The position numbers were made by a program, and so were the translations under genes. From Candidatus Portnoybacteria bacterium (GTDB lineage: Bacteria > Patescibacteriota > Minisyncoccia > Portnoybacterales > GWB1-42-6): a stretch of DNA of 64,000 nt. The DNA lies in the NCBI GenBank assembly GCA_028688325.1, contig JAQTYI010000004.1, forward strand, positions 8,638 to 72,637, read 5' to 3'. The notes beneath the pieces were generated by a model. The model was given only the letters and a program-made list of their open reading frames with translations. It did no database searches and had not been told where the DNA came from. Below are positions 1,486 to 63,380 of this stretch, in pieces (the stretch's first letter is position 1; every line of letters begins with the position of its first letter).

Positions 1486-1620
1486 GTCATTCCGAGCCCC
1501 GCATCCAAAATCATAGATTTTTGGTGCGGGATAAACTCCGCGAGGAATCTCGCGGGAGCGTAGCGATCCGCGCAACAGATCTGGCATCCGCCAGAGATCC
1601 TTCGCTTCGCTCAGGATGAC
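1486..1620. repeat. GTCAT-family MITE-like element (TIR gtcattccgagc / gctcaggatgac)
   Basis: Near-identical copies at 14726, 16672, 25493; terminal inverted repeats seen directly. Confidence 0.7.
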
Positions 1621-3310: not shown

Positions 3311-3448
3311 AAAATCACCTCCTTGTGGTTTACAAAATTTTTTATGAAAAGAACGATTCTTTAAATCCGCATCTAAGCCCTGTATAAAAAATACGGGGCT
3401 GGAATTCGGGTTTAAATATAAATTACAAGGTCAAGTATAAACACAATT

Positions 3449-3531
3449 GTCATCCCGGGCTTGACCCGGGATCCAGGCCCCTGGATTCCCGCTTTCAGTT
3501 TACCCCGCACTTGATGCGGGGCGGGAATGAC
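3449..3531. repeat. GTCAT-family element, CCCGGG-hairpin variant (reverse orientation of the 58541 copy)
   Basis: gtcatcccgggcttgacccggg...gcgggaatgac; its reverse complement matches 58541-58629. Confidence 0.65.
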
Positions 3532-3650
3532 AGTTGAAAGTATTTATACTTCTATTAACACAGGCAGAACCACCCCGTAAAATTTCGCTGCGCGAAATCA
3601 CGGGGCGAGACGCGGTATTATAATGCTGGCAGGCGCGTCCGTGTTAGTTT

Positions 3651-5516: not shown

Positions 5517-5635
5517 AAATTTTATCGCTGCTTTTCTGTCAGGAGAAAAATAGCCAAAAGGCCTGCGCCCGCGGCAATCCTCAGAGAGAGGGTCCTTGGA
5601 CTTTTTTATTTAGATTAAAATTAAGATGATAGTTG

Positions 5636-5717
5636 TGGGGATGGAGAGATTTGAACTCTCACGCCTTGCGGTATACGCTCCTGAAGCGTACGCGTCTGCC
5701 AGTTCCGCCACATCCCC
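5636..5717 (-). tRNA. tRNA-Leu (anticodon CAG), long variable arm
   Basis: Manual fold of the reverse complement: acceptor GGGGATG/CATCCCC, anticodon loop TTCAGGA, T-loop TTCAAAT. Confidence 0.8.
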
Positions 5718-5998
5718 TCGATTTATTATGAGAATATACGAGTTCTAAATTATGCTTTCAGTCCATTATTTCAAATCTTTTAGTTTCGCCCGGATAACCA
5801 GTATCTTACAGGCCAAGAAATACAAATAGACAAATAAAGCATAATTCAAAACTCGTCTGCATAGACGAAAATATAAAACGATGATCAAGCCCGAGAGCGG
5901 GCTTTAAACCGAACATATATATGGCCTTGCGCCATGAGAGTTATTGACCGTCAGAGTGTATCACAGATTAAAACAAAAGTCAATAGCTGGCGCAAAAA

Positions 5999-7006
5999 TC
6001 ATTCTTTCAGCCGTTTTTTCATTTCTTCCACCATCGTCACAGGCGTCGGGTCGGTACCGTAAAAAAGAGCCAGATGATACGAAAGCCAATCGCTGAAACT
6101 GGAAGCCCAGAATATCTTTTCCGGAGGATTATCGCCGATGATATCAATGAATTCTACCGGCATATTCAGCGATCTCAAAAGGTCGGCCGTGACCTCTATC
6201 CGTTTTTTTATCCTTGGCAGGTCGTCTTTGTCGCGCAGGAAGATTATGGAAAAGGAGCCCAGGTTTTTCGTCCAGCCCGCCATCTCGTTATGGTTCATTT
6301 CCGGCAAGGAATTATAGAAGGCGGGAATTTTGGCGTTCTCGTTCAGTTTTATTTTCCAGAGGCGCGCCAGAACCCGGTTGTTCTGAGAGGCATAGATAAC
6401 GGGAATCTTGTGGTCGAGCTTGGCGGAAAGCATTTTTGCCTGGTTTTCCAGGTTCGCCGGTATCACTTTTTCGGGTAAAGACGCGATGGCATGATGGGCG
6501 TCGGAAGTTAGCAGGCCGTAGGCCATCAGGATTTTAACCATGGCGGCCAGCTGATAGCCCAGGGAAGTGCGGGGCGGAATATCATCTTGCGGGATTTTTA
6601 CCCAGGGTGTTTTGAATTTTTGAAAAAGCTCCCCGAGTTCTCCTCCGCAAGTGATGCCAGCGACTTCAAAATTCATTTCCCGGGCTTTATCGAAAGCGGA
6701 AAGCACTTCTTCCGTTTGGCCCGAATATGAAACGCAAAGCACCAGAGTTTTTTCATCGGTGTCGGCGGGCAAGCCGTAGGAGCGGTGCGTGAGAATGGGA
6801 ATTTTTGGCGATAAGGGCTTAAAGCCGGAGCTTAGAAAATACGAAAAGAAATCATCCATCAAGGCCGAGCCGCCCATGCCGCAGATAAGTATCTTGTCAA
6901 AGGGCCGGCGTATCAAGCGCAGTTCATTGAAAAAAATTAGAGGCGCGTTGATTTGCCGGACGGAATTTATGATCACTTCTCTTAAGTTTGATTTATCCAC
7001 CTCCAT
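5999..7006 (-). CDS. SIS-domain sugar isomerase, probable bifunctional phosphoglucose/phosphomannose isomerase (archaeal type)
   Basis: ILICGMGGSAL SIS motif; ~330 aa PGI/PMI-family size. Confidence 0.55.
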   Translation of the reverse strand: MEVDKSNLREVIINSVRQINAPLIFFNELRLIRRPFDKILICGMGGSALMDDFFSYFLSSGFKPLSPKIPILTHRSYGLPADTDEKTLVLCVSYSGQTEEVLSAFDKAREMNFEVAGITCGGELGELFQKFKTPWVKIPQDDIPPRTSLGYQLAAMVKILMAYGLLTSDAHHAIASLPEKVIPANLENQAKMLSAKLDHKIPVIYASQNNRVLARLWKIKLNENAKIPAFYNSLPEMNHNEMAGWTKNLGSFSIIFLRDKDDLPRIKKRIEVTADLLRSLNMPVEFIDIIGDNPPEKIFWASSFSDWLSYHLALFYGTDPTPVTMVEEMKKRLKE

Positions 7007-7095: not shown

Positions 7096-8670
7096 TTAGA
7101 GCTTAATCGTATTTTTAAATACCCTGTGCGTCTTCAGATACCACAGGTTCAGTTGCGATAAGCGCGAAGAGGGCGAGTCCAGATTTTGAAGATTTATTCC
7201 CAAGATTTTCTTTTTGGCGGTTACCAGGTAATCGGGGCTGAAAAGAAACACAGCCGGAAGATCGTTCACGATTAGATTGGCAATTTTTTGATTTTTTTGC
7301 GCCCGAGAGTTTTTGTCCAGGTCTTCCGCGGCGGAAGATAAAAGCTTGTCGGCTTCCGGGTTGCCGTAGAGCGCCAAGTTTAGGCCCGATTCCGTTTTCT
7401 GCGAGGAGTGCCAGAAATAGAACAAGTCCGGTTCTTTGCCCAGCACCTCGCCGAAGAGCAATGCCTGGTATTGGCGGGGCTTGATCGCATCATTTTGTAT
7501 CTTGGCCGTTTCTATTATTTTCAGAACGACGCTGACTCCGGCCTTGCCCCATTGCTCTTTCAAAATTTCCGCCACGCGGGAAAGTTCCGGCCAGTCAATG
7601 GTGGTCATCGTGATTTCCAGTTTCTCGTTCTTTTTGCCAAGCTCCAGGATGCCGTCGCCGTCCGCATCTTTCCAGCCGGCCGCGGCCAGGATGGTTTTGG
7701 CTTGTTCCAGTGAAAAGCCGAGTGATTTTATCTGGTCCGAATATCCGGTCATACCCGGGAGAAGCGGGGAATCGGCAATTTGACCGTAGCCGCCGAAAAC
7801 GGAGTCGATTATTGCTTTTTTGTCGGTGGCCAAGTCGAGCGCTTGGCGCACGGCCTTGTCGGCTAAAAATTTATTTTGGTTTTGATTGAAAAAAACAGCG
7901 AAATAACGCGGCAAACTCAAAGGATAGATATTAATATTGCTGTTAGCTTTGTTTTTCAGGTCGACGAAATTTTTAGCGGAAACAAAACCGAAAAGATCCG
8001 CGCCATCTTTTTTATAGGCGGTGAAAGCGTCATTTTCCGCGGGATAAAAATAAAAGGTCAATGAGTCGATGAACGCTTCACCCGCAAAATATTTGTCGAA
8101 CGCTTTAAGTTCGATGCTTTTAATCGTTCCATTCTTGTCTTTTTGTAATTTTTCGAAACGGTATGGCCCCGAACCGACCGGTTTCAGATTGAGCTCGCTG
8201 AGGGCGAATTGCGACGGCGCAACATTGCCCCAAAGGTGCTTGGGCAGAACACCGAAGGCCAAGTTATTAAGAAAGGATACATAAACATTTTTTAGGCGGA
8301 AACGGATGACGCGGTCGCTCGCTTTTTCTGCTTCAATGCCTTGCCACAAGCCGCGGATGGGGCTGCGGTAATCCAGGTTTTGGATTGTTTGGACGGTAAA
8401 CAGGACATCTTCGGCGGAAAGCGGCTGGCCGTCGTGCCATTTTACATTTTCCTTGAGAGTTATTTCATAAGTTTTGCCGTTGTCTCCGATGGAATATTTT
8501 TCAGCCAGATCGTTGACCAAATTTCCCTGGGAATCATACTTCATCAGGCCGGAAAAAATAAGCGCGGACAAGTCCTTATCGGCGTCGTTTATCTGATTTA
8601 GGACGGGATTCAAGAACCGGGGCGAGCCGACGATGCCGATGTTAATGGCGCCGCCATGATCGGGCCGCAC
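7096..8670 (-). CDS. ABC transporter substrate-binding protein, family 5 (peptide/nickel type); true N-terminus uncertain
   Basis: SBP_bac_5-like sequence; an in-frame signal-anchor helix continues upstream to 8874 with no canonical start. Confidence 0.75.
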   Translation of the reverse strand: MRPDHGGAINIGIVGSPRFLNPVLNQINDADKDLSALIFSGLMKYDSQGNLVNDLAEKYSIGDNGKTYEITLKENVKWHDGQPLSAEDVLFTVQTIQNLDYRSPIRGLWQGIEAEKASDRVIRFRLKNVYVSFLNNLAFGVLPKHLWGNVAPSQFALSELNLKPVGSGPYRFEKLQKDKNGTIKSIELKAFDKYFAGEAFIDSLTFYFYPAENDAFTAYKKDGADLFGFVSAKNFVDLKNKANSNINIYPLSLPRYFAVFFNQNQNKFLADKAVRQALDLATDKKAIIDSVFGGYGQIADSPLLPGMTGYSDQIKSLGFSLEQAKTILAAAGWKDADGDGILELGKKNEKLEITMTTIDWPELSRVAEILKEQWGKAGVSVVLKIIETAKIQNDAIKPRQYQALLFGEVLGKEPDLFYFWHSSQKTESGLNLALYGNPEADKLLSSAAEDLDKNSRAQKNQKIANLIVNDLPAVFLFSPDYLVTAKKKILGINLQNLDSPSSRLSQLNLWYLKTHRVFKNTIKL

Positions 8671-9747: not shown

Positions 9748-9906
9748 TCAATAAAAAGATGCCTTCTTTTTGATCATCCGTTTCAAATTCAAAACGCTTT
9801 TGCCCGAAACCGCCATTTTCGGGCGTTTCTTTTTCAGGCGGCGCTTAGCTTTTTGTTCCAGGATTTTTTGGAGTTGTTCGGAGTTTGCTTGCACGCTCAT
9901 AGTCAT
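9748..9906 (-). CDS. Small basic protein (hypothetical); start codon lies inside the repeat TIR
   Basis: ATGACTATG... on the minus strand is the complement of the gtcat TIR; K/R-rich 52 aa. Confidence 0.2.
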   Translation of the reverse strand: MTMSVQANSEQLQKILEQKAKRRLKKKRPKMAVSGKSVLNLKRMIKKKASFY

Positions 9907-9991
9907 TCCGAGCAAAGCGAGGAATCTCCCGCGTATGCGAGGTGAATCGCACATTCGTGCGAGATTCTTCGGTCTATGGCCTCAGAATGAC
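9902..9991. repeat. GTCAT-family element (short variant)
   Basis: gtcattccgagc...cctcagaatgac. Confidence 0.65.
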
Positions 9992-10016
9992 GAATAAGGT
10001 AAATCTCACTAAAAAA

Positions 10017-11198
10017 TCATTGTCGTAATTTTCTCCTATGCAATTTCCGATAATACGATATCGCAAATCTGTGCGCTTCATTGCGGATGGCCTGAAAAAG
10101 CAGGCGTAAGTCCACCGGAAGTTTGCTAAGGAGCAGGGTCTTATCGCTATATATAGTATACAATTCCTCTTCTTTTTTGGCTAACGAGATAATAGCAGGT
10201 CGCGTATCGCTCGGCACTAAGCGATTGGCGAATTGCGATACGGCCGCGTTCAGCTGCGTCTGGCCGCCATCTATAAGCATAATGTCGGGCAGGGGCCATT
10301 CTTTGTGGTTCAGCCGCCTGGATAAAACTTCTTTTAGCATAGCGACATCATTGGCGCCCCGGACCGTTTTGATGCGGAATTTGCGGTAGTCGGATTTTTT
10401 GGGTTTATAGCCGTCAAAGACAATCATTGAGCCGGTGGCGCTGGTTCCCTGAATGTTGGAAATATCATAGGCCTCGATTCTTATCGGTTCACCGGCGTAG
10501 AGCCGGAGGAATTGTTTTAGGGTGTTAAGCGATTCGTGGTATTTTTTTAACCCCTCCTGCACCGTTTTCTTACAAAAAACGGCGCTTCCCCCCTTTGCAA
10601 AAGGGGGGTTGGGGGTTTTTTTTGACGATTGACGATTTGCGATTGGCGATTGGCCGTGCGCCGGGCACAAACCAAGGTGCCACTGCAAGCATGGCTTATC
10701 ATACGCATTTTTACAGGTGCGATAAGGCAGAATCTTGCGCAGGGCGCGCAAAACCCGTTTGAGCTCTTTGCCGTTGGTGAAGGGACCGATGGGGTCAGCT
10801 GTTAGCTTGTAGCTTTTAGCTTTTAGGTTATGGACAATCAGCACTCTCGGCCATTCGTCATCTGTAAAATTAACTCGTAAATAACTTTTATCGTCCCGCC
10901 ATTGGATATTATATTTTGGCGCATATTTTTTTATCAGCTGATCTTCCAATATCAGCGCATCTTTTTCATCGGCGGTCTTGATGAAATCAATGTCGGAAAT
11001 CCCTCCCAACCTCCCTTTTGCAAAGGGGGGAGCAGGGGGGTTAAATTTGCTTTGGCTGCTTGGAATAAAGTGCGAGCGCACGCGATTGCGCAAATTAACC
11101 GCTTTGCCGATATACAAAATCCGCCCCTGGGCGTCTTTGAATAAATAGACGCCGGGTTTTTGGGGAAGGGCTTTTATTTGTTTTTTTATTGTTGACAT
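10017..11198 (-). CDS. uvrC: Excinuclease ABC subunit C, compact form (GIY-YIG + Cys-rich + RNase H-like endonuclease; no C-terminal HhH region)
   Basis: GVYLFKDAQGRILYIGKAVNLRNRV GIY-YIG; CLQWHLGLCPAHG; DISNIQG...LIDGGQTQL...IRNEAHRFAI. Start set at MSTIKKQ. Confidence 0.8.
   Translation of the reverse strand: MSTIKKQIKALPQKPGVYLFKDAQGRILYIGKAVNLRNRVRSHFIPSSQSKFNPPAPPFAKGRLGGISDIDFIKTADEKDALILEDQLIKKYAPKYNIQWRDDKSYLRVNFTDDEWPRVLIVHNLKAKSYKLTADPIGPFTNGKELKRVLRALRKILPYRTCKNAYDKPCLQWHLGLCPAHGQSPIANRQSSKKTPNPPFAKGGSAVFCKKTVQEGLKKYHESLNTLKQFLRLYAGEPIRIEAYDISNIQGTSATGSMIVFDGYKPKKSDYRKFRIKTVRGANDVAMLKEVLSRRLNHKEWPLPDIMLIDGGQTQLNAAVSQFANRLVPSDTRPAIISLAKKEEELYTIYSDKTLLLSKLPVDLRLLFQAIRNEAHRFAISYYRKLHRRKLRQ
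10586..10616. repeat. Poly-C/poly-G hairpin element, in frame in uvrC (encodes TPNPPFAKGG)
   Basis: cccccctttgcaaaaggggggttggggg. Confidence 0.7.
10797..10827. repeat. CTAAAAGC tandem-repeat element, in frame in uvrC (encodes NLKAKSYKLTA)
   Basis: cagctgttagcttgtagcttttagcttttag, the reverse complement of the ctaaaa[g/a]c family. Confidence 0.55.
11001..11042. repeat. Poly-C/poly-G hairpin element, in frame in uvrC (encodes NPPAPPFAKGRLGG)
   Basis: ccctcccaacctcccttttgcaaaggggggagcagggggg. Confidence 0.7.
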
Positions 11199-11589: not shown

Positions 11590-11722
11590 ATCAACATCCG
11601 ATGTCCCAAATATTTAGCATTTTGTATTCTGGACATCAGATGTCAAAATATTGGACTTAATCCAGCGATGTCCGACAACCTAAAATTCGAAATTCTTTAA
11701 TATTTGAGTTGTCGGACATCAA
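11590..11722. promoter_or_regulatory. Array of four GATGTC-N-GACATC / GACATC-N-GATGTC palindromic sites in the uvrA leader
   Basis: acatccgatgt, gacatcagatgtc, gatgtccgacaac, gttgtcggacatc. The last two form a 13-bp perfect inverted repeat ending 8 nt before the uvrA ATG. Confidence 0.5.
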
Positions 11723-11727
11723 AATAC

Positions 11728-14715
11728 ATGAAAGGTGAGTTTATAAAAATCAAAGGCGCCAGAGTCCACAATCTCAAAAATGTTTCCTTGGATATCCCCA
11801 AGGGCAAGTTGGTGGTGATAACCGGTCTTTCCGGTTCGGGAAAATCGTCTTTGGCGTTTGATACCATCTACGCCGAAGGCCAGCGCCGGTATGTTGAGAG
11901 TTTATCCGCCTATGCCAGGCAGTTTTTGGGCGTGATGGATAAGCCCGATGTCGATTCCATCGACGGCTTGTCGCCTGCCATTGCCATTGACCAGCGAAGT
12001 GTTTCCAAGAATCCGCGTTCTACCGTGGGCACAATAACGGAGATATACGATTATATGCGTTTGCTTTTTTCCCGCGTGGGCAAACCGTATTGCCCCGAAT
12101 GCGGCAAAATTATTTCCCGCCAGAGCCCCAGCGCCGTGGCGGAAGCTGTCTTAAAATATCCCGCGGGCGCGCAAATAACGATCTTGGGTCCGCTGGTGCG
12201 CGCCAAAAAAGGCGAACATCATGGAATTTTGGAGCAGGCGCAAAAAGCGGGATTCGTCAATGTGCGCGTTGATGGCATCGTGCACCGCCTGGAAGAGGCG
12301 ATGGGTTTGGAATTGGATAAGCAAAAAAAGCACAGCATCGAAGTTGTGGTTGACCGAGTGGAAGTGCCCAGTGCCGCGGACAAGGATGAGCGCGCCAGAA
12401 TAGTTGATTCCATAGAAACAGCTTTGAAAGTTGGTAAGGGAATGATGATAGTGAGCAAGAATCAGGATTCTGGGTCCCGGGTCAAGCCCGGGACGACATC
12501 ATTTTTAAAAAATGATGTCGTTTTTTCCGAGCTTTTTGCCTGCGAAAAATGCGGCATTTCTCTGCCGGAGATCGAGCCGCGCCTTTTTTCGTTCAACAGC
12601 CCTTTCGGCGCCTGCCCCGAATGCCAGGGACTGGGCAGTAAACTGGAAATCGATCCTAAATTGGTTATGCCAAACCCGCGCCTAACTTTGGCGGAAGGCG
12701 TGATCCGCCCTTGGGCCACGGCTTCGCACCGCGTGGGCCGGCAGGGATATTATTACTGGCTTATTAGCAAGTTGGCCGAGGCCAATGAATTTTCTTTGAA
12801 CACTCCCGCGGGGGAGTTGCCGAAAGATGTTGTTAAAAAAATCCTCTATGGCGATTCGAAAAATGACTACGAAGGCGTTATTCCGAATCTGGAGCGGCGC
12901 TGGAAAGAAACCGATTCTGATTTCGCGCGCGCGGAGATAGAAAAATATATGCAGGTGCGCCAATGCCCGTTGTGCCACGGCGCCAGGTTGAAACGCGAAG
13001 CGCTGGCGATACGAATAAATTCACTTAACCCCCCTGGGCCCCCCTTTAAAAGGGGGGTTGGGGGGTTAAATATCGCCGATGTTTCCGCGATGAGCATCGA
13101 GGCGGCCAAAAAATACTTTGAGGATCTGAAATTATCCGCCAACGACGCCGAAATTGCTAAGCCCGTTGTCAAAGAAATCCTAAAGCGGTTGAAATTCTTG
13201 CTCGATGTGGGGCTTGACTATCTGACCATCGGCCGTGAATCGACCACTCTTTCGGGCGGAGAAGCGCAAAGAATTCGCCTGGCCACGCAGATCGGTTCCG
13301 GGCTTTCCGGCGTGGTTTATATTTTGGACGAGCCGTCCATCGGCTTGCACCAGCGGGACCTCGCGCGCCTCATCGCCACGCTTTTCCAGTTGCGGGACCT
13401 GGGCAACACTGTGATAGTGGTTGAGCACGACGAGCAGACCATCCTGGCGGCGGATTGGATTGTTGATGTGGGGCCGGGAGCGGGAATTCATGGCGGAAAA
13501 ATAATTTTTGCCGGCACCCCCGCGCAGCTTTTAAAATCCGATTGTTTGACCGGGCAATATTTGTCAGGGAAAAAATCCGTGTCATCAGGTGGTCATCCTG
13601 ACCCCGCAGCGGCGGGGTCAGGATCTAAAAAAGATTCTTCGGCCTCCGGCCTCAGAATGACAGATAAAAATAAGGAACACTTATGGGGAGAACCTGGATC
13701 CCGGGTCAAGCCCGGGATGACAAAGTCATCGGGTTCTTTGCAGATAATCGGCGCCACGGAGCACAACCTGAAAAATATCGATGTAAAAATACCATTGCAG
13801 AAATTTGTGGCCGTGACGGGCGTTTCCGGCTCAGGCAAAAGCACGCTGGTTAATGATATTCTGGGCAAATCTTTAAGCCGCGATTTTCACGGCGCTCATC
13901 AACAACCAGGCGCGCATAAGGAAATTTTTGGCACGGATAATCTGGATAAAGTCATAATCGTGGACCAGTCGCCCATCGGCCGCACGCCCCGTTCCAACCC
14001 CGCCACTTATACTGGCATATTTACGCCCATTCGCGATATTTTTTCCCAAACGCAAGAGGCCAAAATTCGCGGCTACAGCGCGGGGCGCTTCAGTTTTAAT
14101 GTTAAAGGCGGCCGGTGTGAAAATTGCGAAGGCGACGGCGTCAAAAAGATAGAAATGTATTTTTTGCCCGATGTTTATATCGAGTGCGAGGTCTGCCATG
14201 GCCAGCGATATAATAAAGAAACACTGGAGATAGAGTATAAAGGCAAGAATATCGCGCAGATATTGGCGATGCCGGTTGAAGAGGGCTATGATTTTTTCAA
14301 GAATCTTCCGGCGTTGGAGCAAAAATTGCGCACACTCAAAGAAGTCGGTTTGGGGTATATGAAATTGGGGCAATCTTCAACAACTCTTTCGGGCGGCGAA
14401 GCGCAACGCATAAAACTGGCCACGGAACTGGCGCGGCGCGACACCGGCAACACATTATATATATTGGATGAGCCCACAACCGGCCTGCATTTTGACGATA
14501 TCCGGCGATTACTCACAGTTTTGCGCGAACTTGTCAAGAGAGGCAATTCCGTGTTAGTAATTGAGCATAATTTGGATGTCATCGCGAGCACCGACTGGGT
14601 GATAGACCTGGGGCCGGAAGGCGGGGAAAAGGGCGGTTATGTTGTGGCGCAGGGAACGGTTGAAGAGATTATCAAGAGCAAGAAGAGCTATACGGGAAAA
14701 TATTTGAAGGAATAA
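11728..14715 (+). CDS. uvrA: Excinuclease ABC subunit A, with three in-frame repeat-derived insertions
   Basis: Two ABC ATPase halves, [10 protein letters not shown], zinc-finger CxxC motifs. Start set at [16 protein letters not shown]; ~1000 aa against a typical ~940-950. Confidence 0.9.
12464..12528. repeat. GTCAT-family module (cccgggtcaagcccggg hairpin plus gacgacatcattttt/aaaaatgatgtcgt palindrome), in frame in uvrA
   Basis: Encodes [19 protein letters not shown]; the same module occurs at 3449 and 13694. Confidence 0.6.
13027..13067. repeat. Poly-C/poly-G hairpin element, in frame in uvrA (encodes [14 protein letters not shown])
   Basis: aacccccctgggcccccctttaaaaggggggttggggggtt. Confidence 0.7.
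13580..13735. repeat. Composite GTCAT-family insertion (~55 codons), in frame in the uvrA inter-domain linker
   Basis: gtcatcctgaccccgcagcggcggggtcagg...cctcagaatgac plus ctggatcccgggtcaagcccgggatgac; encodes [13 protein letters not shown]...[11 protein letters not shown]. Confidence 0.65.
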
Positions 14716-14725
14716 ACCAAAAATT

Positions 14726-14790
14726 GTCATTTCGAGCCCCGCATCCAAAATCATAGATTTTTGGTGCGGGATAAACTCCGCGAGGAATCT
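14726..14790. repeat. GTCAT-family half element (left module only)
   Basis: Identical to the left module at 1486 and 25493. Confidence 0.6.
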
Positions 14791-14797
14791 GTTCCAA

Positions 14798-14912
14798 AGA
14801 ATTTCTAATTGCTCTAATTTCTAATTGACCTAATCAATGACCAATGCCTAAATTTAGAAATTAGGATTTGGGATTTGATTAGGAATTAGGTTAATTAGGT
14901 AATTAGAAATTA
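14798..14912. repeat. Long AT-rich imperfect palindrome, CAATGACCAATG family (copy 1)
   Basis: tcaatgaccaatgcc...ggatttgggatttg; related copies at 45897-46008 and 62836-62950. Confidence 0.5.
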
Positions 14913-16057: not shown

Positions 16058-16148
16058 ATGATATCAGATATCATAAGATTTGAATTAATATTTTGATGTC
16101 CGACATCCTGAGATTCGGGTGCATTAATATCTGGGATGTCGGACATCA
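16058..16148. promoter_or_regulatory. Operator-like sites upstream of groESL: GATATC-A-GATATC, GATGTC-C-GACATC, GATGTC-G-GACATC
   Basis: Same motif family as the uvrA leader; each site is preceded by ttaatat. Confidence 0.5.
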
Positions 16149-16253: not shown

Positions 16254-16313
16254 GTCATTCTGAGGGCGCAGCCCGAGAATCTGTTAAAGATCCTTCGCTT
16301 CGCTCAGGATGAC
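16254..16313. repeat. GTCAT-family element (short) in the groES 5' leader
   Basis: gtcattctgagggcgcagcccgagaatct...gatccttcgcttcgctcaggatgac. Confidence 0.65.
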
Positions 16314-16671: not shown

Positions 16672-18483
<1,812 letters not shown>

Positions 18484-19303: not shown

Positions 19304-19437
19304 TTGGCAGTTTTTTAAGGGAAGAGAGATTTTTAAAAACAGGGCAGGGTAGAGAAAGAATAAAATGTATACACGGAGAGGTCGTCCGCTCAGGCATAAT
19401 GAGCGGATCCGCTCGCTTCGCCGAGCGGACATACAAT

Positions 19438-19698
19438 ATGTTTTATGTCTATGTGTTAAAAAGTGAAAAAGACGGGAACTGTTATACCGGTTTTAGCATT
19501 GACTTAAAGAAAAGAGTAGAAGAACATAATAAGGGGAGAGTAGAAATAACAAAAAATCGCAGGCCCTTGTTGTTGGTTTATTATGAAGCATTTTTGGACG
19601 AGAAGGCTGCGAGGCGGCAAGAATTATTTTATAAGACCGGTCAAGGAAGAAGAATTTTAAAAAAGAGATTAAGCTTTATACACGGAGAGGTCGCATAG
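19438..19698 (+). CDS. Small GIY-YIG nuclease-family protein (copy 1)
   Basis: FYVYVLKSEKDGNCYTGFSIDLKKRVEEHN GIY-YIG motif; 3' end overlaps the tRNA-Ser 5' end. Confidence 0.65.
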   Translation: MFYVYVLKSEKDGNCYTGFSIDLKKRVEEHNKGRVEITKNRRPLLLVYYEAFLDEKAARRQELFYKTGQGRRILKKRLSFIHGEVA

Positions 19699-19768
19699 AG
19701 GCCGAGTGCGCTCGCTTGGAAAGCGAGTGGTCCGCAAGGACTCGAGGGTTCGAATCCCTCCCTCTCCG
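19684..19768 (+). tRNA. tRNA-Ser (anticodon GGA), type II with long variable arm
   Basis: Manual fold: acceptor GGAGAGG/CCTCTCC, 3-bp D-stem, anticodon loop TTGGAAA, T-loop TTCGAAT. Confidence 0.7.
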
Positions 19769-19796
19769 CAATCCTTCGCTAAAGCTACGGAATTGC

Positions 19797-20096
19797 ATGC
19801 ACTATACTTATATTTTATTAAGCTCAAAATCCCATATTTTTTATTTCGGATCAACGAACGATTTGAAGAAAAGATTAATTTTACATAATTCTGGCAAGGT
19901 ACCATCCACTAAACCGCATATTCCTTGGATTCTGGTATGGTACGGTGCTTTTCAGGCAGAAAAACAAGCAAGGGATTTTGAGCTTTACTTGAAAAATGGA
20001 TCGGGGAAGGCCTTTGCTTATAAAAGATTAGTTTCGGTAGCTTTGGCGAAGGATTTTGAATCCGGGAGAAAAGGTAGTCCGAAGCTAAAAGCGTAG
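19797..20096 (+). CDS. Small GIY-YIG nuclease-family protein (copy 2)
   Basis: YTYILLSSKSHIFYFGSTNDLKKRLILHNSGK; start reset downstream of the tRNA. Confidence 0.6.
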   Translation: MHYTYILLSSKSHIFYFGSTNDLKKRLILHNSGKVPSTKPHIPWILVWYGAFQAEKQARDFELYLKNGSGKAFAYKRLVSVALAKDFESGRKGSPKLKA

Positions 20097-20100
20097 GATA

Positions 20101-20114
20101 CCCTCCCTCTCCGC
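20101..20114. repeat. 14-bp direct repeat of the tRNA-Ser 3' end (ccctccctctccgc), att-like
   Basis: Identical to 19756-19769. Confidence 0.55.
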
Positions 20115-20240
20115 CAGATGTCCAAGTTATAACCGAGGTAAAATAAGGGATTTTGACGATTGAAAAGCTGGTATCCGTAAAGATGTCGGTTTTTCAATAA
20201 TACTTATCAATAGCAAAGAAAATTGGTATAATAGAGTCAT

Positions 20241-25005: not shown

Positions 25006-25062
25006 GTCATTCTAAGGCCGTAGGGCGAAGATTCTAAGATCCTTCGCTTCGCTCAGGATGAC
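25006..25062. repeat. GTCAT-family element (short)
   Basis: tgtcattctaaggccgtagggcgaagattct...gatccttcgcttcgctcaggatgac. Confidence 0.65.
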
Positions 25063-25482: not shown

Positions 25483-25492
25483 AAAGATAATT

Positions 25493-25650
25493 GTCATTCC
25501 GAGCCCCGCATCCAAAATCATAGATTTTTGGTGCGGGATAAACTCCGCGAGGAATCTCGCGGGAGCGTAGCGACCCGCGCAACGGTCTCGCATACGCGAG
25601 AGATCCTTCACGGAGTTTATACTGAACGAAGTGAATGTGTTCAGGATGAC
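25493..25650. repeat. GTCAT-family element (full length); its right TIR contains the dnaG start codon
   Basis: Left end identical to 1486; right end ...gtgttcaggATGACc. Confidence 0.7.
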
Positions 25651-27505
25651 CAAAGCATTGGACGGAGTGATTGATCAAATAAAACAAAAACTCGATATTT
25701 TAGAAGTGTTGGGGGAATATATCAAACTCACCAAGGCCGGCCGGAACCATAAGGCGAAGTGCCCCTTTCATGCCGAGCGCTCGGCTTCCTTTATGGTTTC
25801 GCCAGAGCGCCAGATTTGGCATTGTTTTGGGTGCGGCCTGGGCGGGGATATTTTCGGATTCGTGATGAAAATAGAGGGCGTGGAATTTGGCGACGCGCTG
25901 CGTCTTTTGGCGCGGCGAGCCGGCGTGACATTGAAAAAACAGGATCCGCAGGTCCAATCGCAAAAAAAGCGGCTATACGATATTTGCGAGCTGGCCGCCA
26001 AATTTTTTGAAACGCAATTGCATAAAACCGCAGCGGGTAAAAAAGCGTATGAATATCTTGCCGAACGGGGAATGAAGGCACAAACAATAAAGGACTGGCG
26101 GCTGGGTTGGGCACACGATGATTGGCGCGCGTTGGGAGATTTTTTGAAAAGCAGGGGATACAAGGAGGATGAGATAGAAACAGTCGGGTTGATAATCAAA
26201 AAAGATTATAACTCCCCCCAACCCCCCATTAATTTAAGAGGGGGTGAGCGGAGCGGGGGGGCGTTAGGCCATTATTATGATAGATTCAGGAGTAGAATAA
26301 TTTTTCCGATTGCAGACAGCCAGGGCCAGGTGATAGCGTTCGGCGGCAGGATATTCGGCGAGGCGGCCAAAAAAGAAGATGTGGCCAAATATCTCAATTC
26401 GCCCCAGACCCCGCTTTATGATAAAAGCAGCGTTCTTTACGGATTGAACAAGGCCAAAAACGATATCCGCGTCAAAGACCAATGTGTTATAGTCGAAGGG
26501 TATATGGATTTGATAATGTCGCACCAGGCCGGCATTGCCAACGCGGTGGCGTCTTCCGGCACGGCCTTGACCGAAAACCATCTGGCAATTATTGGTCGCT
26601 ATGCTAAAACCCTGGCTATGGCGTTCGATTCGGACGAGGCCGGCGGTATGGCCACGCGCCGCAGCATCGATCTGGCGCTGAGGCGGGATTTCAATGTCAA
26701 AGTCATATTGATGGATGAAAAAGATCCGGCCGATATCGTCAAAAAGGATCCGGCGGAATGGCCGAAATTGATAGAAAACGCCCAGAGCATAATGGATTTT
26801 TATTTCACTTACGCTTTTGCCAAGCGCGACGCCAAATCGGTTGAAGGCAAGCGCGAGATAAGAAAAATCTTATTGACAGCCATAAAATCCATCGCCAGCA
26901 AGACCGAGCAGGGCGAATGGATAAACGAATTGGCGCGCCGTTTGCGCGCGGACGAGCGGGACCTTTTGGCCGATATGAAGAAAATAAAATTGGAAACGCC
27001 GGAGGATTATGGCGGCGCGCCAAACAGCGAACCCGCGCAGATTATCGCCAAATCCCGGCTTGAGGGGCTCGAAGAAAGATTTCTGGGGTTGTGTCTGAGC
27101 CATCCGAAACATTTTTCCGAGATCACCGCTGACGAAAGCGACTTTCATAATGACGATTTGGCGCAAATTTTTAAAGGGTTAAAGAAGCTGTCGGGTAAAA
27201 AAGAAGGCAATGAGCTGCTGGTGTCGCTCCGTAAAGAATTAAAGCCGGAATTGCAGATAAAGATCGACTACCTCATATTCCAGATTGAGCAGCACGAGAG
27301 GGACGAAAAAGACATCATCGCGGAAATCGCTTCTTGCATCCTGGAACTTAAGCTTTTGCGGTTAAGGAATAAATTGACGGCCTTGAGCTTTGACATCAAA
27401 GACGCCCAGCAAGGCAAAGATAAAAATAAACTGGGAAAACTTTTAAAACAATTCGATCAGACATCTTCCGATTTAAACAGCATAACAAACACAGATGCCA
27501 GGTAG
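25646..27505 (+). CDS. dnaG: DNA primase DnaG with an in-frame poly-C element insertion
   Basis: CPFHAERSASFMVSPERQIWHCFGCGLGGD zinc-binding; TOPRIM EGYMDLI...DSDEAG. Confidence 0.85.
   Translation: MTKALDGVIDQIKQKLDILEVLGEYIKLTKAGRNHKAKCPFHAERSASFMVSPERQIWHCFGCGLGGDIFGFVMKIEGVEFGDALRLLARRAGVTLKKQDPQVQSQKKRLYDICELAAKFFETQLHKTAAGKKAYEYLAERGMKAQTIKDWRLGWAHDDWRALGDFLKSRGYKEDEIETVGLIIKKDYNSPQPPINLRGGERSGGALGHYYDRFRSRIIFPIADSQGQVIAFGGRIFGEAAKKEDVAKYLNSPQTPLYDKSSVLYGLNKAKNDIRVKDQCVIVEGYMDLIMSHQAGIANAVASSGTALTENHLAIIGRYAKTLAMAFDSDEAGGMATRRSIDLALRRDFNVKVILMDEKDPADIVKKDPAEWPKLIENAQSIMDFYFTYAFAKRDAKSVEGKREIRKILLTAIKSIASKTEQGEWINELARRLRADERDLLADMKKIKLETPEDYGGAPNSEPAQIIAKSRLEGLEERFLGLCLSHPKHFSEITADESDFHNDDLAQIFKGLKKLSGKKEGNELLVSLRKELKPELQIKIDYLIFQIEQHERDEKDIIAEIASCILELKLLRLRNKLTALSFDIKDAQQGKDKNKLGKLLKQFDQTSSDLNSITNTDAR
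26212..26261. repeat. Poly-C/poly-G hairpin element, in frame in dnaG (encodes SPQPPINLRGGERSGGAL)
   Basis: ctccccccaaccccccattaatttaagagggggtgagcggagcggggggg. Confidence 0.7.
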
Positions 27506-28845: not shown

Positions 28846-28870
28846 CAGTTTTTAGTTTGTAGTTTTTAGA
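28846..28870. repeat. CTAAAAAC-family repeat (direct copy with 29373-29404)
   Basis: acagtttttagtttgtagtttttag. Confidence 0.55.
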
Positions 28871-29369: not shown

Positions 29370-29372
29370 ATA

Positions 29373-29404
29373 ACAGTTTTTAGTTTGTAGTTTTTAGTTT
29401 TTAG
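29373..29404. repeat. CTAAAAAC-family repeat
   Basis: acagtttttagtttgtagtttttagtttttag; inverted partner at 29779-29808. Confidence 0.55.
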
Positions 29405-38184: not shown

Positions 38185-38982
38185 ATGGATTTTTCATATG
38201 CAATCATTTTGGGCGTCGTTGAGGGAATAACGGAGTTTTTGCCGATCTCTTCAACAGGGCACCTGATGCTGACGGCGCGTCTTTTGGATCTGGGCCAAAG
38301 CGAATTCTTGAAAAGTTTTGAGATCATCATCCAGCTGGGCGCGATCTTATCGGTGGTAGCTTTATACTGGCGGGAGCTTTTGGTCAAATGGGAGACAATG
38401 AAGCGCGTAGTCGTTGCTTTTGTTCCAACGGGGATTATCGGCTTGGTGCTGTATAAAATCGTTAAAGCTTATTTGCTGGGCAGTGAAACGGTGGTTTTGT
38501 GGAGTATGTTTTTGGGCGGATTATTTTTATTAGCGTTTGAATATTGGTACGGAAAAAAATCCCCCCTAACCCCCCTTTTACAAAGTGGGGAAAATAATAA
38601 ATTGGAAAATATCTCCTACGGCCAGGCCGCGGCGCTGGGTTTGTTTCAATCAATTGCGATAATTCCCGGCGTTTCGCGCTCGGCCGCCACAATTCTGGGG
38701 GGCTTATTCATGGGAATTTCTCGCAAAACAATCGTTGAATTTTCTTTTTTGCTGGCTGTGCCGACAATGCTGGCGGCCACCCTCCTCGATCTTTTTAAAA
38801 GCGCCGGTCAGTTTTCTTTGTCTCAGTGGGATTTTTTGGCTGTAGGTTTTTTTGTTTCTTTCGTTACGGCTTTGACTTCCATCAAGTTTCTGCTCAATTT
38901 TATCAAGAAGCATTCCTTTATCGCCTTTGGCGCTTATCGCATGGCGATTGCCTTGATTTTTTGGTTTTTTATTGTAAGATGA
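38185..38982 (+). CDS. uppP: Undecaprenyl-diphosphatase UppP/BacA with in-frame poly-C half-element
   Basis: VVEGITEFLPISSTGHLML. Confidence 0.85.
   Translation: MDFSYAIILGVVEGITEFLPISSTGHLMLTARLLDLGQSEFLKSFEIIIQLGAILSVVALYWRELLVKWETMKRVVVAFVPTGIIGLVLYKIVKAYLLGSETVVLWSMFLGGLFLLAFEYWYGKKSPLTPLLQSGENNKLENISYGQAAALGLFQSIAIIPGVSRSAATILGGLFMGISRKTIVEFSFLLAVPTMLAATLLDLFKSAGQFSLSQWDFLAVGFFVSFVTALTSIKFLLNFIKKHSFIAFGAYRMAIALIFWFFIVR
38560..38590. repeat. Poly-C element (left half plus degenerate right), in frame in uppP (encodes SPLTPLLQSGEN)
   Basis: tcccccctaaccccccttttacaaagtgggg. Confidence 0.55.
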
Positions 38983-51370: not shown

Positions 51371-51472
51371 GTCATCCTGAGCACATTCGCTTCGCTCAGC
51401 ATAAACTCTGCGAAGGATCTAAAAATAGATTCTTCGCTGCGCCCCGCAGCCGCGGGCTTCGCTCAGAATGAC
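51371..51472. repeat. GTCAT-family element; right TIR supplies the upstream ATG of the next ORF
   Basis: gtcatcctgagc...cttcgctcagaATGACc. Confidence 0.65.
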
Positions 51473-55307: not shown

Positions 55308-56411
55308 GTGAACCGATCACAACTAAACAAATTTATAACCTACCTGCAAAAAAGCGACTGGTCGGTATTTGGACCGGTTTTTACGACCGAGAAAGTCGAG
55401 GAGCTTTCACCGTTTTTGTCGGCACATATGCCTTCGGCTGTAAAAAAGACCGGCCAGATATTGATAAAGGGGATATCAAATCCCGACGAACTGAACCTGG
55501 ACGGGCAATTGCCTTTTTATTCCTTCAAACGGTTTTTTGTGCCGGAAAAAGAGGGGCTTTTTGATTACCAAAACAATAAATTAAGAGATAAAAAATCAGT
55601 TTACCCTGAGCGCAGTCAAAGGGCGCTGGTCGGCATGAATATTTTGGACATGAAAGCCGTGAATCTTTACGACCAGGTTTTTGAGAAAGACCCGTATTAC
55701 CAGGCCAGGCGGCGCAATATCCTCATCGTCGGCTATTCGTTGACGCCAGAAATAGAAAATAATATTTTTGAACACAAGTATGAAGAGGATATTCTGGAAC
55801 ATTTGCCTTTTGACATTTTTTTGGCAGATTATAACGCCCCCTCGTCCCGCGAACTGCGGAACTCGCCCCCTCTTAAATTAAGAGGGGGGTCGGGGGGGTT
55901 ATATAAAGTTTTTACTGGAAGCATAAAAGGCCAACGGATTCTGGAGCACTTTGGCTATAAGGACTATGAGCACATCCAGTTCAGCGGACCGATCAAGGAG
56001 GGGGAGGCGGACAAAAGGATGGAGCGCTTGCGCGACCGGTTAAAAAATCACCATAATTTAAAAATCTGGGAGGAATTGGGCCAGCGCTGCATCGAATGCG
56101 GCAAGTGCACCCTGGCCTGCCCAACCTGCTTTTGCTTTCGCATAGACGATGCTCCCGCGATCAAAGAAAACTTGGGCGAGCGTTCGCGCTGCTGGGATTC
56201 CTGCTATTATCAGGAATTTTCGGAAGTCGTCGGCGGGCATAAATTTCTGGACAACACCGCCAAACGCATCCATTTTTGGTATTTCCATAAATTCGCCAGG
56301 ATTCCCGATGAATTTAATTTCATGGGCTGCGTGGGCTGCCATCGCTGCGCCGCGGTCTGCCCGGTGGGAATAGATATAAATAAAGTGTTGGAGGACATAG
56401 AAAATTCTTAG
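55308..56411 (+). CDS. hydB: Sulfhydrogenase beta-like subunit (HydB/AsrA-like) with two 4Fe-4S motifs and an in-frame poly-C element
   Basis: CIECGKCTLACPTCFC and CVGCHRCAAVCP; ~367 aa like archaeal HydB. Confidence 0.55.
   Translation: MNRSQLNKFITYLQKSDWSVFGPVFTTEKVEELSPFLSAHMPSAVKKTGQILIKGISNPDELNLDGQLPFYSFKRFFVPEKEGLFDYQNNKLRDKKSVYPERSQRALVGMNILDMKAVNLYDQVFEKDPYYQARRRNILIVGYSLTPEIENNIFEHKYEEDILEHLPFDIFLADYNAPSSRELRNSPPLKLRGGSGGLYKVFTGSIKGQRILEHFGYKDYEHIQFSGPIKEGEADKRMERLRDRLKNHHNLKIWEELGQRCIECGKCTLACPTCFCFRIDDAPAIKENLGERSRCWDSCYYQEFSEVVGGHKFLDNTAKRIHFWYFHKFARIPDEFNFMGCVGCHRCAAVCPVGIDINKVLEDIENS
55862..55900. repeat. Poly-C/poly-G hairpin element, in frame in hydB (encodes SPPLKLRGGSGGL)
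   Basis: ctcgccccctcttaaattaagaggggggtcgggggggtt. Confidence 0.65.
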
Positions 56412-57692: not shown

Positions 57693-58628
57693 ATGCAAAA
57701 CAAAGGATTATTATTGGTTTTTTCCACCGCCATCATTTCCGGCGTTTCGGTTTTCATCAATAAATTCGGCGTGGGAATGAATAACCCGGATATTTTCACT
57801 TTCGCCAAAAATACGGCGGTAGCTGTTTTGTTTACGGCTGTTATCTTCTTTTTAAAAGACAGGAAGGCCTTATTTCAATTAAACAAAAACCAGTGGTTGC
57901 AATTGCTGGCGCTGGGTTTGATCGGCGGCTCGATTCCGTTCCTGCTTTTTTTCAAGGGCTTGGCCTTAACAAGCGCGGCTCAGGGCGCTTTTATCCATAA
58001 GACAATGTTCATTTTTGTGGTAATTCTGGCGGCCTTCATCTTAAAAGAGAAGATCAACAAAAATTTTATTATCGGCGGCTTGCTTTTGCTTCTCGGCAAT
58101 CTAATATTGCTTAAGGGCCTTCATTTTTCGTTCGGCTTGGGCGACGCGCTGGTTCTTGTCGCGGTCTTGTTCTGGGCGATGGAAAATGTCTTGGCTAAAT
58201 ATGTCCTGCGAGAAATGCCGGGCAATATCGCGGCCTGGGGGCGGATGTTTTTCGGCTCGATATTCATCCTGGCTTATTTATCCTTTACGGGACAGGCATC
58301 GCAAGTTTTGAATCTCAACTCGGCGCAAATCGGATGGATTGCCATAACTTCCGCCTTGCTTTTCGGCTACACGATAACCTGGTATAACGGATTAAAGACC
58401 GTTTCCGTTTCGATCGCCACCACGATCTTGCTCTTTGGCCTACCCATAACAACGGCGCTGTCGGCGATCTATGCTGGAAAAATAACCCCGCAAGACGCCT
58501 GGTCTATGATATTATTACTACTTGGCGTATTTATTATTGTGTCATTCCCGCCCCGCATCAAGCGCGGGGTAAACTGGAAGCGGGAATCCAGGATCCTGGA
58601 TTCCCCCGCAACTGCGGGGCGGAAATAA
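57693..58628 (+). CDS. EamA/DMT-family transporter; last ~28 codons encoded by a GTCAT-family element
   Basis: 10 TM helices; C-terminus VSFPPRIKRGVNWKRESRILDSPATAGRK is repeat-derived. Confidence 0.65.
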   Translation: MQNKGLLLVFSTAIISGVSVFINKFGVGMNNPDIFTFAKNTAVAVLFTAVIFFLKDRKALFQLNKNQWLQLLALGLIGGSIPFLLFFKGLALTSAAQGAFIHKTMFIFVVILAAFILKEKINKNFIIGGLLLLLGNLILLKGLHFSFGLGDALVLVAVLFWAMENVLAKYVLREMPGNIAAWGRMFFGSIFILAYLSFTGQASQVLNLNSAQIGWIAITSALLFGYTITWYNGLKTVSVSIATTILLFGLPITTALSAIYAGKITPQDAWSMILLLLGVFIIVSFPPRIKRGVNWKRESRILDSPATAGRK

Positions 58629-63232: not shown

Positions 63233-63274
63233 ATTAGCTACGAATACGGATTTTTTACGAATATACGGATATTT

Positions 63275-63380
63275 TTCCCCTCTTTCGTAAAGAGGGGTTA
63301 GGGGAGATTTAAAAGCGCTTTATTTATCAAATAAAGCATTCTTAAATCCCTCCCAACCTCCCTTTAAAAAGGGAGGGGTA
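63275..63380. repeat. Two poly-C/poly-G hairpin elements in a nested palindromic intergenic complex
   Basis: ccctctttcgtaaagaggggttagggg and tccctcccaacctccctttaaaaagggaggggta, flanked by atacggat/atccgtat. Confidence 0.6.

Follow-up and report, generated by a model that had tools for sequence, protein, structure and literature searches.

We analysed a 64,000-nucleotide stretch of a Candidatus Portnoybacteria genome (assembly GCA_028688325.1, contig JAQTYI010000004.1, positions 8,638 to 72,637; hereafter the window, with coordinates counted from its first letter) and found that its uvrA gene (11728..14715, plus strand) stays open across four copies of short hairpin repeats. The explanation that we favor, with a probability of about 0.78, is that these copies are four independent in-frame insertions of dispersed hairpin repeats, which spread as selfish DNA and were filtered by selection. 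Near-identical copies of the repeats are dispersed in the window, the corresponding sites of orthologs are empty, the reading frame is preserved, and the inserts are placed in loops and linkers. Three of the four inserts come from a repeat family, F1, that belongs to the class of the Neisseria NTS hairpins and their generalization, the Ssn-related motif (SRM); the fourth comes from a second family, F2.

In-frame hairpin repeats in uvrA

The uvrA open reading frame (ORF) extends from 11704 (TTG) or 11728 (ATG) to 14715, and the ATG start of the ORF list, which is supported by the N-termini of orthologs, gives a product of 995 aa. This product scores 1410 bits against the NCBIfam UvrA equivalog model (cut-off 1147) and has 100% identity to a Candidatus Portnoybacteria protein that bears the name UvrA at NCBI and comes from a metagenome-assembled genome (MAG). 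In an alignment of the 50 best UvrA orthologs (64–100% identity, 928–1059 aa), all catalytic motifs are conserved. A first-pass annotation, made from the sequence alone, had described the gene as open through repeat copies and its product as enlarged (~1000 aa versus ~940–950 aa). We confirmed both points, in that the copies are missing from close orthologs and the closest insert-poor ortholog, P0004, has 947 aa. For the DNA comparison we used four orthologous loci, L001, L002, L123 and L124; the L001 locus is syntenic with the window and its UvrA is 82% identical.

Site 1 (12463..12498, minus strand) is a degenerate single F1 unit that encodes 12 aa, has the head ACGAC in place of ATGAC, and matches the intergenic repeat at 3448-3483 at 86%. 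In the codon alignment, it is short or absent in L001 and L002. We think that it is probably the right-half remnant of a former doublet, because the full doublet of L123 shares its right half and its 3’ junction (ATGACA TCA TTT). The end of the element and the native codons N-D-V-V together form a perfect junction palindrome of 13–14 bp (ACGACATCATTTTT/AAAAATGATGTCGT, 12493..12521), which reads ATGACATCATTT/AAATGATGTCAT in L123 (~8056-8084), a compensatory difference in which ACGAC...GTCGT of the window is replaced by ATGAC...GTCAT. The single-stranded DNA (ssDNA) of 12460-12528 has a predicted folding energy of −20.4 kcal/mol (z = −6.7). Of the module previously placed at 12464-12528, the repeat copy is 12463-12498, and 12493-12521 is a further palindrome that includes native codons.

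Site 2 (13025..13069) is the poly-C/poly-G palindrome TTAACCCCCCTGGGCCCCCCTTTAAAAGGGGGGTTGGGGGGTTAA of family F2. It encodes 16 aa for a net gain of 14 codons (42 nt), and its ssDNA fold is also strong (−18.8 kcal/mol, z = −4.2). The gain is clean: where the window holds TTAACCCCCCTGGGCCCCCCTTTAAAAGGGGGGTTGGGGGGTTAA, L001 has ATA AAT AAA directly followed by ATA AAT ATT. The site is likewise empty in L002 and, in the protein alignment, in 46 of the 50 orthologs, which are otherwise length-invariant at this place.

The third region consists of two insertions. Site 3a (13592..13661) is, as found by our F1 detector, a 70-nt inverted head-out doublet of a plus-strand unit (13592-13625) and a minus-strand unit (13633-13661) that encodes 24 aa in the linker between the two ATP-binding cassette (ABC) halves. 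L001 has no such element. L002 shares the doublet and its position, and the stems of L002 and the window differ in a compensatory manner (GGCC/GGCC to GGGC/GCCC); the ssDNA fold of the site is −22.3 kcal/mol (z = −5.7). About 10 native linker codons follow (13662..13692, plus strand), including the HLWGE that is conserved in L001, which lacks both inserts. Site 3b (13693..13723, minus strand) is a single F1 unit of ~30 nt that encodes 10 aa (fold z = −2.6). It is complementary at 31 of 31 positions to intergenic 3447-3477 and is missing from all four orthologous loci in the codon alignment. The three places flagged by the first-pass annotation thus correspond to three inserted segments of the protein, but the events number four, and the third region, although repeat-derived as it had been described, adds ~29 codons relative to L001 rather than ~55.

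We also observed that site 3b runs into ATGAC-AAA-GTCAT (13717-13729), which resembles the junction palindrome of site 1. Such junction palindromes could reflect a target preference, templated repair within a palindrome or a truncated second unit.

The inserts have relatives elsewhere in the window. The sequence CCCGGGTCAAGCCCGGG occurs in site 1 (12476-12492), in site 3b (13700-13716) and between genes at 3454-3470, three matches against 0.02 expected. The right half of 3a has copies at 9962-9997 (86%) and 16796-16831 (81%), and F2 has seven copies besides site 2. The view that all inserts also occur between genes therefore holds for sites 1 and 3b, for F2 and for the right half of 3a, but not for the left half of 3a, which has only family-level relatives within the window.

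Structural placement of the inserts

Comparison of the product with solved UvrA structures using phmmer revealed query-only segments at ~aa 246-259, 430-443 and 619-669 in otherwise near-complete alignments. We also built an AlphaFold2 model of UvrA from the 50-sequence alignment (mean predicted local distance difference test score, pLDDT, of 76.9). Apart from a few short native loops, only the inserts (aa 247-259, 434-443 and 622-666) have pLDDT values under 50 in this model. The solved fragments of the UvrB-binding domain (3fpn and 4dfc) align to residues 135-247 of the query; therefore, site 1 lies at the C-terminal edge of this domain. It precedes the second CxxC (CEKC) of zinc module 1, whereas site 2 is located just past zinc module 2's second CxxC (CPLC), and site 3 corresponds to the linker between the ABC halves. 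Thus the linker placement proposed in the first-pass annotation stands, and so does an insert ahead of a zinc-module motif if it is understood as site 1 and zinc module 1, but site 2 follows the zinc module 2 motif. Judged from the gaps in the structures and from the low-confidence loops of the prediction, the insert positions appear to fit the UvrA fold.

Empty and filled sites in orthologs

The first-pass annotation had proposed an alignment with orthologs and UvrA structures, and in this alignment the inserts are gaps in the structures and the sites are empty or short in relatives. Sites 1 and 3 are length-variable hotspots, where repeat-like peptides differ by lineage and several close relatives are short or empty. 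F1- or F2-type peptides can be recognized in at least 20 of the 50 orthologs, and in 19 of these they occupy the linker; the count was obtained with ad hoc patterns and is a lower bound. Both empty and filled sites are observed for uvrA, uvrC and dnaG, and in protein alignments as well. In L001, we found no F1 and no true F2 copy in 22.8 kb, which indicates that the expansion is recent and lineage-specific. In some lineages the stems have decayed, for example from TCAGG to GAAGG in L002. On these alignments, the uvrA repeats are lineage-specific insertions that are missing from close orthologs.

The F1 family and its copies between genes

We searched for F1 with a detector that requires a GTCAT head, an outer stem starting at AT, and a C after the palindrome, and that was calibrated on Markov shuffles. 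It found 20 units in the window against 0.47 expected, 19 of which we judged to be real; the match at 20973 is likely a false positive. A stricter custom detector, our first, found only 6 units, and the published SRM regular expression found 2. An F1 unit is 25–65 nt long and consists of a (T)GTCAT head, a palindrome that starts at AT, and a conserved C directly 3’ of it. All 19 real units start with GTCAT, mostly with T or TT before the head, which agrees with the oriented NTS/SRM head (H)GTC(W)(Y) directly 5’ of the palindrome. The trailing C is required by the detector, yet it is also present in every recognizable copy of an independent listing. Sixteen units form eight convergent head-out doublets (GTCAT> ... 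<ATGAC), including site 3a; site 3b is among the singlets and site 1 is a degenerate singlet. Among the repeat pairs in the window, one is identical at 31 of 31 positions and another is 99% identical over 93 nt.

Between genes, a doublet at 3447..3532 has the twin of site 3b as its left unit, and the doublet downstream of uvrC (9902..9991) shares 86% identity with 3a in the right unit. An F1-type element with the head GTCATTTCGAG (14724..14816, plus strand; repeat family D1) directly follows the uvrA stop codon and has no counterpart in the L001 spacer. The groES-groEL spacer holds a doublet (16672..16825), and this spacer is shorter and repeat-free in L001, L123 and L124. Another doublet lies upstream of groES (16254..16313) and is noncoding, as the Cpn10 domain starts at ~16326. 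The other doublets are located between ychF and pgm (1486..1620), upstream of dnaG (25493..25650), with a single unit nearby at 25038-25062, and upstream of and overlapping the start of an HMA/DsbD_2 gene (51371..51472).

At three of these doublets, the terminal ATGAC meets a likely or possible start codon. The ATG within it is the likely start of dnaG (25646, MTKALDG...), which aligns with the N-terminus of the L001 DnaG, and the motif also coincides with possible starts of pgm (1616, MTNG...) and of the HMA/DsbD_2 gene (51468, MTEI...). F1 repeats may thus supply start codons.

Some F1 units of 48–64 nt (1486-1549, 16672-16735, 25493-25556, 3484-3531 and 58541-58588) have a main loop in which a second hairpin (CCCCGCA-loop-TGCGGGG) is nested, with TAAACT after it. 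Loop extensions do not block cleavage by Ssn nucleases (PMC11893778). The nested units may be composite or ‘loaded’ units.

F1 as a member of the NTS/SRM hairpin class

Chenal et al. (2025) described the Neisseria NTS, CGTCATTCCCGCGMAVGCGGGAATCYRG, and generalized it as the SRM (PMC11893778). According to this work, small GIY-YIG nucleases named Ssn bind and cut NTS/SRM hairpins as ssDNA only, with cleavage depending on three bases upstream of the palindrome and binding on the C after it, and the ssn gene is often found in an arrangement like an insertion sequence (SRM-ssn-SRM). SRMs are widespread across bacterial phyla, with Rickettsia among the genomes that have >300 of them (PMC11893778). 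The published SRM pattern fits 13694-13722, which is site 3b of uvrA, and intergenic 3448-3476, against 0.14 matches expected. We found no NTS copy within 3 substitutions in the window. In the uvrA genes of L123 and L124, in contrast, an NTS with one mismatch, the criterion that PMC11893778 itself used, lies in frame and encodes ‘VIPAQAGIQ’ and ‘VIPAKAGIQ’, respectively, and the L124 linker has a copy with three mismatches in another frame (‘VSFPRKRES’).

We then scanned the 22-mer CCCGGGTCAAGCCCGGGATGAC of sites 1 and 3b, as an exact match, against one genome per species of the Genome Taxonomy Database. At least 120 stretches/genomes of many phyla match it, against ~0.07 expected by our estimate for uniform base composition. 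The matches listed include Alpha-, Beta- and Gammaproteobacteria, Actinomycetota, Bacillota, Bacteroidota, Binatia and cultured isolates, as well as Zixibacteria, Cloacimonadota, Rickettsiales, Legionellales and the Candidate Phyla Radiation (CPR). The conservation across phyla is sharply bounded, (T)GGAT-CCCGGG-TCAAG-CCCGGG-ATGAC, and ends exactly at ATGAC; the flanks are unrelated and an inverted partner is often present upstream. By architecture, and partly by exact sequence, F1 is thus assigned to the NTS/SRM hairpin class. Its head, palindrome and trailing C match those of NTS/SRM, and the GTCAT family is not an invention of this lineage.

Of 128 copies of the 22-mer examined from the loci of the genome scan, at least three lie in frame within Pfam-verified genes; most long ORFs that run across the 22-mer in high-GC genomes are spurious, and three were kept after the Pfam check. 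A Bacteroidales MutS2 (L078) has the SRM module N-terminal to its MSSS and Smr domains, an SRM doublet lies within the catalytic domain of a Rhodoferax LipB (L031), and the UPF0004 and Radical SAM domains of a Sphingomicrobium MtaB-like radical-SAM enzyme (L057) have a doublet between them. These cases suggest that in-frame insertion of the module is a general but overlooked phenomenon.

In the cross-phylum loci (L003-L122), a second ATGAC, often as GGATGAC, lies 10–19 nt outside the head in 10 of 124 copies, against ~1.2 expected by our estimate, and on the tail side in only 1 of 124. Duplication of the end could account for this second ATGAC, or the motif could mark a cleavage site. The 22-mer module was also found on 14 viral or proviral contigs of IMG/VR (L205-L218), three times on one of them. 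Viral contigs are a possible route for horizontal spread, although the proviral calls may include contaminating host flanks.

The F2 family and in-frame copies in other genes

F2 is a palindrome of ~40 nt with the form C6-N3-C6-loop-G6-N3-G6. It has 8 copies in the window, is also present in L123 and L124, gave one marginal detector match in 879 kb of diverse genomes, and was not found in 295 kb of other CPR-like loci. F2 is restricted to this lineage and is unrelated to F1. Two of its copies lie between genes in inverted orientation (63273..63378).

The other F2 copies are found in frame within genes. The uvrC gene (minus strand) contains one at 10586..10626 (SSKKTPNPPFAKGGS) and one at 10992..11044 (FNPPAPPFAKGRLGGISD) in the part encoding the GIY-YIG domain, neither of which is present in the L001 uvrC. 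In dnaG (plus strand), a copy at 26207..26258 (YNSPQPPINLRGGER) splits the Pfam DNAG_N match into two stretches and is missing from the L001 DnaG, which is 79% identical. An F2-type copy in uppP/bacA (38555..38594, plus strand; KKSPLTPLLQSGEN) appears as an 8-residue query-only segment against the E. coli UppP structure 5oon. A copy in the gene of a hydrogenase-associated 4Fe-4S (Fer4_22) protein (55862..55903, minus strand; NSPPLKLRGGSGGLY) occupies a loop that varies across 30 orthologs and is empty in several. In addition to these, an F1 unit forms the C-terminal tail of an EamA transporter in frame (58541..58588, plus strand; VSFPPRIKRGVNWKRES...). Altogether, the 64 kb contain 10 in-frame events in 6 of ~55 genes, which are uvrA, uvrC, dnaG, uppP, the 4Fe-4S protein gene and the EamA gene.

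We did not count the copies near ychF and groES as genic; the Pfam domains start at ~aa 44–46 of these ORFs, which places the repeats upstream of the true starts. An ORF on the minus strand that overlaps repeats (25192-25653) was rejected as well. It has no Pfam match, and the real gene there encodes a cupredoxin (25075-25482, plus strand).

In L124, the uvrC gene (5555-6733, minus strand) also has an F2 copy in the GIY-YIG region (6555-6587), at about the place that is equivalent to 10992-11044 of the window. This suggests that the uvrC GIY-YIG region is a second recurrent hotspot.

All 10 genic events preserve the frame and are free of stop codons. If insert length were unconstrained, frame preservation alone would have a probability of (1/3)^10 = 1.7e-5. 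Stop-free frames account for 73 of 114 in F1 (about 4 of 6) and for 26 of 48 in F2 (about half); the stops occur in one or two frames per family, never in the frame that is used. With the coding fraction of the window, 0.81, as the expectation, F1 is depleted in genes (4 of 14 events against 11.3 expected, p = 3e-5), which points to purifying selection on insertions.

A proposed selfish-spread model and the search for a mobilizing enzyme

We propose that this Candidatus Portnoybacteria lineage has seen a recent multiplication of the F1 and F2 repeats. They would behave as selfish DNA that is mobilized in trans by an ssDNA enzyme specific for hairpins, and an Ssn-type nuclease is the obvious candidate for this enzyme. 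Most insertions into genes would be lost by selection. The survivors would be those that have a net length of a multiple of three, a stop-free frame and a structurally permissive place, which in UvrA would be the border of the UvrB-binding domain, a hairpin turn that follows zinc module 2, and the inter-ABC linker. These copies would be translated as extra disordered loops and UvrA function would be little affected. The pattern fits ordinary repeat spread together with selection for frame-preserving copies in permissive loops, and no dedicated mechanism is indicated. The first-pass annotation had compared the inserts with the Rickettsia palindromic elements (RPEs) and suggested an analogous mechanism that places mobile elements into proteins. 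The resemblance in behavior is borne out by the ortholog, codon and structure comparisons, but nothing points to a machinery dedicated to insertion into proteins, and the GTCAT family extends far beyond this lineage.

Several observations weigh against this explanation. F2 is genic in 6 of its 8 events and thus shows no depletion, which a model of selfish DNA under purifying selection does not predict, although the sample is small. Stems that differ between lineages in a compensatory way could indicate that the hairpins are selected and not neutral. The SRM pattern fits only 2 of the 19 F1 units, the rest of which share the architecture with longer or nested stems. Translation of the inserts is an inference. 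Target-site duplications and exact boundaries were sought in the syntenic spacers, and none were definable, as these spacers are too diverged. No transposase, REP-associated tyrosine transposase (RAYT), Y1_Tnp or integrase was found in the window ORFs scanned, and the candidate nuclease genes of the window are not linked to F1. These are two small GIY-YIG genes, 19399/19438-19698 and 19798-20096, which are 47% identical and flank a tRNA-Ser(GGA) gene (19684-19769); the only other GIY-YIG motif in the window is that of UvrC. No F1 copy lies within 1 kb of the two genes. Relatives of the first gene in 80 metagenome loci have no adjacent GTCAT hairpins and show a background F1 density, with 4 units in 295 kb.

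An SsnA homolog would be a single-domain GIY-YIG protein (cd10448), typically with SRMs around its gene. The family of the first GIY-YIG gene, considered as an ssnA-like partner, consequently fails the test for the SRM-gene-SRM architecture, and the L001, L002, L123 and L124 fragments contain no small GIY-YIG gene. Ssn-mediated mobility is what the repeat class would suggest by analogy, and any partner enzyme is a candidate only.

The surroundings of the two GIY-YIG genes have features of their own. The first gene overlaps the 5’ end of the tRNA-Ser gene, and the 3’ end of the tRNA, CCCTCCCTCTCCGC, is repeated after the second gene (~20101-20114). A restriction-modification pair follows, with an N6_Mtase-like ORF (20241-21413) and an R.Pab1 endonuclease gene (21382-22155). 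The region 19399-22155 looks like a small integrated islet at a tRNA.

Alternative explanations

The main alternative is that the genic hairpins are kept for a function, either at the DNA level, as Ssn-type nuclease or recombination sites that would tune the transformation or recombination of repair and replication genes in the way of the NTS repeats near Neisseria genes, or as lineage-specific protein loops, for example at the UvrB-binding domain. Seven of the 10 genic events are in uvrA, uvrC and dnaG, the same loops are filled in many orthologs (20 of 50 UvrA proteins have repeat peptides, and the 4Fe-4S family behaves alike), stems are kept paired by compensatory changes at 3a (against L002) and at the site 1 junction (against L123), and F2 is not depleted from genes. 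NTS/Ssn also influences transformation in Neisseria (PMC11893778). On the other hand, the content of a given site varies between close relatives, several of which are empty, the closest syntenic genome (L001) has no copy at all, the inserts are predicted to be disordered, and the stems of some lineages decay, as in L002. Moreover, family members may exchange sequence and palindromes may undergo templated repair, and either process can produce differences that look compensatory; the sample, too, is one 64-kb window. We regard a retained function as unlikely. A specific form of it, which we also hold to be improbable, is that the uvrA, uvrC and dnaG hairpins are Ssn-type sites within coding sequence that make CPR repair and replication genes controlled hot or cold spots of recombination and transformation, with lineage-specific disordered loops added at functional interfaces, among them the border of the UvrB-binding domain. 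If this were true, the junction palindrome of site 1 with its compensatory change would mark hairpin-templated insertion or repair.

Less probable still is that the inserts never reach the protein, whether through intron-like removal from the mRNA or through programmed ribosome bypassing. Bypassing occurs in T4 gene 60 and at the mitochondrial ‘byp’ elements, and strong hairpins such as those seen here are a property of known bypass elements. In-frame, stop-free inserts in all 10 genic events would be needless if the inserts were removed, with length alone giving (1/3)^10, and the stop-containing frames that exist in each family are never used. Neither F1 nor F2 has an intron or ribozyme match in Rfam, and NCBI annotates the 995-aa product as an intact UvrA, all of which makes this reading very doubtful. 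We likewise give little credence to a metagenome assembly artefact with mis-joined repeats or to a decaying pseudogene. The sequence comes from a MAG, and assemblers can be misled by short repeats that are dispersed; however, one and the same conserved gene carries on in an unchanged frame on either side of each insert, and independent assemblies from other samples (L002, L123 and L124) have the same kinds of elements at the same sites. The score of UvrA above the equivalog cut-off and its conserved catalytic motifs argue against an artefact and against decay alike. Finally, the direction could be reversed, with slippage or templated mutation at quasi-palindromes creating the inserts in uvrA itself, or with the inserts representing an old linker, and with the dispersed copies being unrelated or derived from genes. 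As such a local origin would have it, all orthologs show a hypervariable linker and site 1, and the junction palindrome of site 1 takes in native codons. Yet the 22–31-nt module recurs without change between genes here and, next to unrelated flanks, in at least 120 genomes from unrelated phyla. At site 2, 42 nt were cleanly gained at a place whose length does not otherwise vary, and the F1 events are mostly intergenic. A local origin is accordingly among the least probable of the explanations considered.

Other features of the window

An Rfam scan of the window found three tRNAs only, and neither F1 nor F2 matched a family. A third motif, GATGTCCGACA, has 7 matches against 0.68 expected and forms 13-nt inverted pairs around an AT-rich spacer at 11667-11720, ending 8 nt before the uvrA ATG, and at 16095-16147, upstream of the groES region. 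Both sites fold as strong hairpins. The motif could represent a further repeat family or an operator that stress genes have in common.

The 4Fe-4S protein gene belongs to a NiFe-hydrogenase-like cluster (55308-61562) that encodes the Fer4_22 protein, an FAD/NAD-binding subunit, an Oxidored_q6 small subunit and a NiFeSe_Hases large subunit. The EamA transporter and a DUF6390 protein interrupt this cluster, and two genes in it hold repeat insertions. Elsewhere, a ‘23S rRNA-intervening sequence protein’ gene (29408-29773) is bracketed by identical 27-mers (28843-28869 and 29371-29397), and an inverted copy of the 27-mer (29771-29819) abuts a tRNA-Asn gene (29817-29889).

Relation to known systems

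Most known cases of in-frame ‘selfish DNA in proteins’ are from Rickettsia, and here the phenomenon is dense in a CPR/Patescibacteria genome and affects core repair and replication genes. The link to NTS/SRM and the Ssn GIY-YIG ssDNA nucleases provides a concrete and testable candidate for how the elements move. For the annotation of CPR genomes, extra loops, ‘MT...’ N-termini and Pro/Gly-rich peptides may be repeat-derived rather than functional novelty. The presence of F2 in genes without depletion, the compensatory stem changes and the junction palindrome are the features that our explanation leaves unexplained.

PMC11893778 describes the repeats as flanking genes and mentions neither copies inside genes nor the CPR, and we found no later paper that reports either. 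[quoted passage not shown] Thus, members of the NTS/SRM class inside coding sequence have not previously been reported in the literature that we could search.

With NTS, dRS3 and SRM, F1 shares the (C/T)GTCAT head, a palindrome that starts with ATTCC or ATYCY, and the conserved 3’ C; two window copies fit the SRM pattern, uvrA orthologs contain a one-mismatch NTS, and the 22-mer recurs across many phyla. Unlike those elements, the copies of the window would be translated inside genes, most F1 stems are longer or nested, and no SRM-flanked ssnA was found in the window. The repetitive extragenic palindromic (REP) sequences, with their BIME and REPIN arrangements, are also short, imperfect, non-autonomous palindromes with many copies, a conserved 5’ head, and common inverted doublets, of which F1 has 8 among its 19 units. 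The REP head, however, is GTAG and not GTCAT, REPs are extragenic by definition, and no RAYT is present in the window ORFs scanned. Intragenic MITEs, such as ERIC, the Coxiella QMITE1 and the Anabaena MITEs (reviewed in PMC10969869), are likewise small non-autonomous repeats that are able to form in-frame fusions with host ORFs, but they are larger and have classical terminal inverted repeats and target-site duplications, whereas no duplication was definable here.

The closest parallel in behavior is that of the RPEs. In the account of Ogata et al. (2000) that PMC10969869 gives, these are dispersed palindromes of ~100–150 bp inserted in frame in unrelated housekeeping genes of Rickettsia, with 44 genic copies in the whole R. 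conorii genome. As in the window, dispersed palindromes lie in frame in housekeeping genes of small genomes, leave the ORF intact and add peptides compatible with the fold. The elements of the window differ in being hairpins or doublets of 25–70 nt from two other families in a CPR/Patescibacteria genome, so that the likeness is one of behavior, and they are dense, as 64 kb hold 10 genic events. Because Rickettsia is among the genomes rich in SRMs, there may be some overlap between RPEs and SRMs. RPE-like in-frame insertion is therefore known in kind, and what is new is the lineage, at the level of the phylum, and the class of repeat.

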